Positions 6,401 through 6,766 of a DNA stretch of 12,509 bases are shown piece after piece. Each line of letters starts with the position of its first letter. Position 1 is the first letter of the stretch. Source of the DNA: a virus (taxonomy: Duplodnaviria; Heunggongvirae; Uroviricota; Caudoviricetes); the IMG/VR virus record IMGVR_UViG_2609460344_000006, positions 1 through 12,509 of that record, one strand, 5' to 3'. Below the pieces are notes generated by a model. That model did not search any database and was not told the origin of the DNA. It saw nothing but the letters and a program-made list of their open reading frames with translations. A program made the translations under genes and the position numbers.

Positions 6401-6766
6401 TTACAGTCCGATGATGTCGTCCGCTCTGCCACTACCTCCGGACACCTCCGGCAGCGTCGGGTCCGGCATACCACCCGCCGCTTCACGAGCAGACTTTTGT
6501 CGATGGCATTCGGTACAGAGCGTCCAGAGATTCGTCTCCTCATTACCACCACCGAACTGAAGTGCAATTCGGTGATCGAGTTCACTGTCACAGAGGCCAA
6601 CCACACGACCACAGAGACGGCACTGCCCGGCGTCCCTGAGCCAGATATGACGCTTGAGGGAAACACGTGCACTGCCACTGACACGACGCTGTTAACCCTT
6701 CAAAATATTCACCCGTCGGGTATTCAGTGTTTTGATTCTGCTCTGGAGTGTACGAAGCTCAGCCAT
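6401..6766 (-). pseudogene. Phage HNH endonuclease (HK97 gp74-like packaging accessory) interrupted by an in-frame TAA at codon 25
   Basis: My translation from ATG 6766 is MAELRTLQSRIKTLNTRRVNILKG*QRRVSGSARVSLKRHIWLRDAGQCRLCGRVVGLCDSELDHRIALQFGGGNEETNLWTLCTECHRQKSAREAAG... The stop is at 6692-6694. The CxxC...DH...N...CxxCH motif is complete. The ORF track shows only the 67-aa tail starting at GTG 6604. Confidence 0.8.

Follow-up and report, generated by a model that had tools for sequence, protein, structure and literature searches.

Kala et al. reportedly found in 2014 that dependence on an HNH protein is specific to Terminase_1 (PF03354) large terminases. The association of HNH proteins with terminases of this type has been partly restated (PMC13595911), and the HNH protein of phage HK97, gp74, is a TerL-binding protein that stimulates cos cleavage, indispensable in vivo but only stimulatory in vitro (PMC13595911); gp74-induced cos cleavage has been reproduced (PMC9410871). 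Skunavirus sk1, which belongs to an unrelated host and phage lineage, encodes a terminase-adjacent HNH protein of 94 aa, HrdP, whose deletion abolishes infective virions and leaves replication and protein synthesis unaffected, packaging appearing to start and not to finish (PMC12967558). In O157 Sakai, lambdoid prophages with head or packaging defects, one of them without an intact terminase, are still packaged, and Asadulghani et al. (2009) explain this by sibling prophages whose near-identical modules complement the defects (PMC2669165). Our literature search found no published experiment on the packaging role of the HNH family described below.

The stretch of DNA analysed here (12,509 nucleotides, hereafter the window) carries a packaging module in the order HNH, cos region, TerS, TerL, protease/capsid and portal, which is the head-packaging type of BP-4795 and the Sakai-Sp lambdoid E. 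coli prophages and the near-identical type found in the O157 Sakai pool of defective prophages, where point defects in head and packaging genes are the norm (PMC2669165). Gene context was taken from the annotation of the near-identical E. coli cM8a and checked by Pfam on the window's own proteins (Table 1). The HNH frame stops at 6401 and is followed by a spacer of 291 bp, by terS at 6109 and by terL at 5549, as is typical of packaging-associated HNH genes; the usual partners of such genes, a PF03354 TerL, a PF04860 portal and a PF05065 capsid protein, are all encoded alongside it. The capsid fusion protein of the window has an exact match in 8451 blocks of the gene-position collection.

Table 1. 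Features of the packaging module and of the interrupted HNH gene, with positions in the window
Feature	Position	Strand	Basis
DUF3950 gene (YlcI/YnfO), divergent, upstream neighbour of HNH	6808-7008	+	PF13132
HNH endonuclease gene, interrupted at codon 25	6401-6766	-	PF01844, PHROG 589
N-terminal remnant, 24 codons, predicted translated part MAELRTLQSRIKTLNTRRVNILKG	6695-6766	-	translation
Private CTG>TTG, silent at Leu22, 9 nt before the base that creates the stop	6703	-	comparison with relatives
Premature ochre codon TAA, against Glu25 GAA/GAG in orthologues	6692-6694	-	orthologue alignments
Sole downstream in-frame ORF with a canonical start, GTG, 67 aa	6401-6604	-	ORF list
Repeat-rich spacer, 291 bp, presumed cos/terminase-recognition region	6110-6400	.	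position only
Terminase small subunit, 187 aa	5546-6109	-	PF03592; cM8a annotation
Terminase large subunit, 553 aa	3888-5549	-	PF03354 (formerly Terminase_1) ATPase + PF20441 nuclease
Prohead protease-major capsid fusion, 645 aa	1887-3824	-	PF04586 + PF05065 (HK97-type capsid)
Portal ORF, 454 aa, complete PF04860 domain	311-1675	-	PF04860

On the minus strand, the ATG at 6766-6764, with GGGGA upstream at a 6-nt spacing, opens a frame that reads MAELRTLQSRIKTLNTRRVNILKG (24 residues) up to a TAA at 6694-6692. Past this stop the same frame reads QRRVSGSARVSLKRHIWLRDAGQCRLCGR...ELDHRIAL...NLWTLCTECH..., in a longer spelling QRRVSGSARVSLKRHIWLRDAGQCRLCGRVVGLCDSELDHRIALQFGGGNEETNLWTLCTECHRQKSAREAAGG...IIGL, and ends at a terminal TAA at 6403-6401, which gives 121 sense positions and a terminal stop, the premature TAA being codon 25. 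Re-reading and translation agree with the original prediction on the start codon and its GGGGA, the stop at 6692-6694, the HNH motif continuing through to 6401 and the total of 121 codons. The stop lies upstream of the whole domain, the gene has no uninterrupted frame able to yield an HNH domain, and the locus as written is an HNH pseudogene, or nonsense allele, and encodes no functional member of the superfamily.

With codon 25 repaired to Glu, the protein is identical to WP_032188493.1 of E. coli cM8a and strain 600055. PF01844 (HNH) matches the repaired translation at residues 49-94 (E 6.2e-8, 33.1 bits against a gathering cut-off of 21.4), and PHROG 589, 'HNH endonuclease', matches it over its full length (E 1e-43). 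In an alignment of the HNH family (29 sequences), D64-H65 with the catalytic His, N79 and the metal-binding H88 are invariant, in keeping with the HNH profile (beta-beta-alpha-Me fold), and so are C49/C52 and C84/C87, which form the zinc-binding [CxxC]2 pair on either side of the beta-beta-alpha core. An AlphaFold model, computed from P0001 (98% identical to the window protein) and 27 homologues, has a mean pLDDT of 68, with values of 78-88 over residues 31-100; it comprises a helix (31-44), the CxxC loop (49-52), strands at 61-65 and 80-84 and a second helix (85-98), and the HNH core corresponds to residues 31-98. Foldseek matches of the model were the Cas9 HNH domain, the Gme HNH nickase, McrA and Cap5. 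The first 26 residues are modelled with low confidence or as disordered, with pLDDT <50 at residues 1-8 and 18-26. Despite these values, this N-terminal stretch of ~26 residues shows strong conservation across Enterobacterales, and it may be a partner-binding segment, perhaps for terminase, that folds only in complex.

The protein resembles HK97 gp74 (NP_037756.1, 119 aa) in being a small single-domain HNH protein of similar size, and in the circularised HK97 genome the gp74 gene directly precedes cos and terS/terL, the position that the HNH gene has in the window. HK97 and the window are also alike in their PF03354-type TerL, PF04860 portal and PF05065 capsid. The similarity to gp74 that had been proposed for this gene thus stands for length and position and fails for sequence, since BLASTP of the repaired protein against gp74 gave only E 0.17, with 26% identity over 57 residues. 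The motifs differ as well: gp74 has CxxC + CxxH and an alpha-helical insertion (PMC3592412, PMC13595911), whereas the window family has CxxC + CxxCH and a conserved N-terminal extension of ~30 residues. The window HNH protein is a positional analogue of gp74 from a different HNH subfamily.

Codon 25 encodes Glu (GAA or GAG) in every orthologue that we examined, namely ~105 E. coli prophage and phage copies and 28 further family members, as little as 54% identical, from other Enterobacterales. In aligned copies from cM8a, 89-3156, BP-4795 and Stx2a_WGPS2, the window's GGT TAA CAG is GGT GAA CAG, and ten more prophage copies, at 85% nucleotide identity, also have GAA; one of these ten (L007) carries an unrelated G-run frameshift in its HNH gene. 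After the IMG/VR scan, the tally over 96 loci, in which duplicate fetches of cM8a and BP-4795 are counted, was 80 GAA and 16 GAG at codon 25 and CTG in 96/96 at codon 22. Such alternation between GAA and GAG, with Glu kept, is a signature of purifying selection on a translated codon 25. At the protein level, a search returned 170 relatives, nearly all of 120-123 aa, and when the repaired protein is aligned with 28 relatives (120-123 aa; E. coli, Klebsiella, Citrobacter, Cronobacter, Hafnia, Serratia, Sodalis and others) E25, M1, L4, L7, R10 and R18 are invariant.

The upstream ATG is the annotated start in the phage records inspected. Orthologues starting consistently downstream of the TAA would have spoken against a nonsense mutation; they start at the same upstream ATG throughout and their N-terminus is conserved, which shows that the N-terminal 24 residues belong to the protein. 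The reading of the TAA as a true nonsense mutation is supported by these comparisons, in which GAA or GAG always follows that common start. The E. coli lambdoid orthologues (WP_032188493.1; BP-4795 ORF53, YP_001449290.1; Stx2a_WGPS2 gp62; phage 2851 EP2851_50), at 99.5-91% nucleotide identity, share with the window the start codon, the 121-codon length, the CxxC...DH...N...CxxCH motifs and the location, flanked by the DUF3950 gene on one side and by the cos region and terS on the other. The window alone has TAA for GAA at codon 25 and a silent TTG at codon 22, all other copies examined being open except L007.

Two deviating gene calls were seen in this family. PHROG 7275 ('unknown function', 67 aa) corresponds exactly to residues 55-121, i.e. 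to the ORF opened by GTG 6604; we considered it as a sign of a downstream start and set it aside, as the phage records inspected annotate the full-length gene, and we attribute it to scattered short gene calls in some phage records. In phage JLK-2012 (JQ347801.1, 435-965; our locus L119) the HNH gene is annotated with 531 nt, not 366 nt, and its C-terminal extension enters the cos-side spacer.

We compared the window with its closest relatives. It is 99.7% identical to cM8a over 12.5 kb, with five differing sites in positions 1-12133: two at 2047-2048, one G-run length difference, 6694 and 6703. The pair at 2047-2048 is private to cM8a, because the capsid protein of the window is the common allele. 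The rarer BRO-N protein was used to fetch ten loci encoding the same protein, nine of which extend across the HNH gene, and an intact HNH protein of 121 aa is called in all nine of these syntenic, near-identical loci. The nearest relatives (L111, L113, L116 and L114) match the window over 5.7-6.9 kb with 99.92-99.96% identity. Each of them carries one to three further differing sites of its own, and exactly two differences from the window are common to all four, 6694 G>T and 6703 C>T (coding strand). Since these are the only differences that all four share, both changes are derived and private to the window. By this comparison, the GAA>TAA change appears to be very recent and to lie on the terminal branch leading to this genome.

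The TAA allele was absent from exact-pattern scans of 185,579 species-representative genomes, IMG/VR and JGI metagenomes. The double-mutant allele was likewise absent from 5,426 complete E. coli genomes in a 51-nt megablast, a search that needs a 28-mer word, is blind to single-mutant alleles and excludes the double mutant only. Beyond the HNH gene, identity to cM8a drops abruptly at 12134-12493, a segment of 360 bp with ~30 differences that covers part of the DUF826 gene and the DNA upstream of it, and the DUF826 protein of the window is identical to one that stands beside lambda-type and P22-type packaging modules in other prophages; the segment is a mosaic recombination boundary.

The two derived bases are 9 nt apart and both are T on the coding strand (A on the + strand). 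With ~3 differences in ~6.9 kb to the nearest relative, we estimate the chance of two differences falling within 9 nt at ~0.01, a value that suggests either clustered mutation in one event or a local consensus artefact; we infer that a single event produced both changes. No second copy of the mutated 20-mer that could have served as a templating donor was found in the window at up to 3 mismatches, and no convincing quasi-palindrome was found near the two changes. Hairpin templating that 'perfected' GTGAAC to GTTAAC was rejected, the palindrome having 6 bp and no loop. A terminator-like match at 6722-6710 and a promoter-like match at 6678-6706, both over the mutated bases, occur at chance frequency, and the substitutions at 6694 and 6703 give no better consensus match to either motif.

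The explanation that we favour, and consider probable as a whole, is that a clustered private mutation made the HNH gene null and left the prophage packaging-defective. One event on the terminal branch would have changed CTG to TTG (silent, Leu22) and GAA to TAA (invariant Glu25 to ochre). Translation from ATG 6766 would then end after 24 residues and would leave no functional HNH domain, because GTG 6604 has no ribosome-binding site and the 67-aa fragment starting there lacks helix 31-44 and the first zinc-binding CxxC. If the PF03354-type TerL cleaves cos efficiently in vivo only with the help of the neighbouring HNH protein, as is reported for terminases of this type, the prophage should not be able to mature or package its own DNA after induction; the lysis, terminase, capsid and portal genes would stay as in relatives, and the prophage would be packaged only if a second prophage in the same cell, equipped with this module, provided HNH protein in trans. 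Given a real mutation, the allele is very probably null, and loss of the HNH protein should block cos cleavage unless a helper prophage is present.

As homology to gp74 is undetectable, the need for this protein in cos cleavage is deduced from gene position and TerL family rather than from orthology, and since gp74 only enhances cleavage in vitro (PMC13595911), an HNH null might be leaky. The phenotype predicted for the window prophage is that of the sk1 HrdP deletion (PMC12967558). The O157 Sakai study describes no HNH nonsense allele, whereas the window would carry, as far as its relatives indicate, one base change of very recent date, in a module otherwise identical to theirs.

The packaging-defective state had been proposed for a prophage with intact terminase, capsid and portal genes. 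Terminase and capsid are indeed as in relatives; the portal ORF is split, although the PF04860 domain is complete within its 454 aa. This ORF ends at an ATGA overlap just past a run of five G at 326-330. The G5 run, also present in cM8a and L015, splits the portal into the 454-aa ORF and an ATGA-overlapping ORF of ~405 aa, whereas 8/12 sequences have G6 and a single ORF of 859 aa, and one (L011) has G7. BP-4795 likewise has a split portal (ORF58/59), and the cM8a gene bears the PGAP label 'frameshifted'. Either the split and fused forms may both be functional, or the run may be a slippage hotspot that inactivates the C-terminal part.

The mutation could be real and its effect masked by HNH protein supplied in trans by a co-resident lambdoid prophage, packaging and transfer then continuing; we regard this as possible, if rather unlikely. 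A 600-bp region matches 1,283/5,426 complete E. coli genomes and 93 phage records, and single E. coli genomes hold up to 7 matching places; in strain CP018250.1 the module occurs three times, with an identical capsid protein, and the packaging of defective O157 Sakai prophages credited to sibling complementation (PMC2669165) is a precedent. Against this, the median number of matching places per E. coli genome is 1. Masking would, moreover, modify the consequence of the null allele and would not replace the mutational explanation.

A sequencing or assembly error, with GAA (and CTG) as the true sequence and the gene intact, is unlikely in our estimation. The allele is unique among all sequences examined, and its two private differences are separated by 9 nt, the kind of closeness sometimes seen in local base-calling artefacts. 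Elsewhere the window looks clean, however: there are no indels relative to L111 or L113 over 6.4-6.9 kb, and the long homopolymers (G9, A8) agree with relatives. These features moderately favour a clean assembly, and with it a real mutation. Substitution-only double errors are also uncommon in polished assemblies, whereas real nonsense mutations in prophage genes are commonplace, a lone premature stop in such a gene being statistically unremarkable. We therefore take the mutation to be real with good, though not full, confidence.

Rescue of expression in cis, by readthrough of the ochre codon (through a suppressor tRNA or a leaky TAA-C) or by downstream reinitiation, is very unlikely. The base after the premature stop is C, reportedly a weaker termination context in E. 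coli than U or G; against this, no stop codon is terminated more efficiently in E. coli than TAA. The HNH protein might be needed in small amounts only, as a stimulatory cofactor (PMC13595911). Readthrough, which the original prediction had offered as an alternative, nevertheless found no support: a stop at codon 25 occurs in 0/96 loci and 0/28 family members, and the conserved stop and context of a programmed recoding signal are not seen in any relative. Reinitiation fares no better, as the ORF list contains no in-frame ATG, GTG or TTG between the premature stop (6691) and GTG 6604, and the sequence preceding this GTG, GCCGTCTCTGTGGTCGT, holds no Shine-Dalgarno-like element. GTG 6604 lies past the first CxxC, and its product, which keeps D64-H65, N79 and C84/C87/H88 and still scores as a partial HNH domain, is without helix 31-44 and C49/C52; it had been correctly predicted that a restart there would lose the first CxxC. 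Neither the 67-aa GTG ORF (with M or V first) nor a 104-aa out-of-frame ORF is recorded in the gene-position collection.

Still less probable is a stop that is maintained, with low-level readthrough or with the 24-residue peptide acting on terminase, giving an attenuated, conditionally packaging prophage. Particle production would then depend on a suppressor or a helper prophage, and the allele would be a step towards a satellite-like or domesticated element, selected rather than decaying.

The spacer between the HNH stop and terS holds five repeats with a GTTAAC core at 6186-6306 (120 bp; consensus ~CCAGTTAACAT), probably the sites at which TerS recognises the cos region. At 6289-6310, two repeat units combine into GCCAGTTAACATGTTAACTGGC, a perfect palindrome of 22 bp that 20 fetched sequences carry unaltered; in some relatives position 6309, within it, is different. 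Right after the HNH stop, a run of 9 G at 6385-6393 (minus strand), whose length in relatives is 7, 8, 9 or 11 G, is a hypervariable tract adjoining the presumed cos site. The premature stop itself lies in a GTTAAC at 6691-6696 that exists only because of the G>T change, relatives reading GTGAAC there, and its context, GGGTTAACAGC, shares one base beyond the hexamer with the repeat consensus; coincidence, which had been suggested for this overlap, is the best reading. That the mutation was selected as a sixth GTTAAC site, for example an added binding site for terminase or a host factor, is the least probable explanation of all, since the over-representation of the hexamer in the window (9 observed against 1.8 expected, five of them in the cluster) is offset by the greater length of the true repeat unit, which lies within the 22-bp palindrome, and by the place of the site, ~390 bp from the cluster, inside a coding region and in no relative.

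Under the explanation that we favour, in which a clustered private mutation inactivates the HNH gene, the allele is an ordinary gene-inactivating mutation of early prophage decay, and its mechanism is not new. It is a nonsense allele of a well-populated, already annotated family, and point defects in such morphogenesis genes are well documented. Gene-content tools would score the prophage as 'intact', yet it would probably achieve no cos cleavage on its own. The locus offers a natural, presumed-null allele, on a relative-identical background, in an HNH family other than that of gp74, and repair of T6694 to G would give a clean isogenic pair with which to ask whether a non-gp74 HNH protein is essential for PF03354-type terminases.
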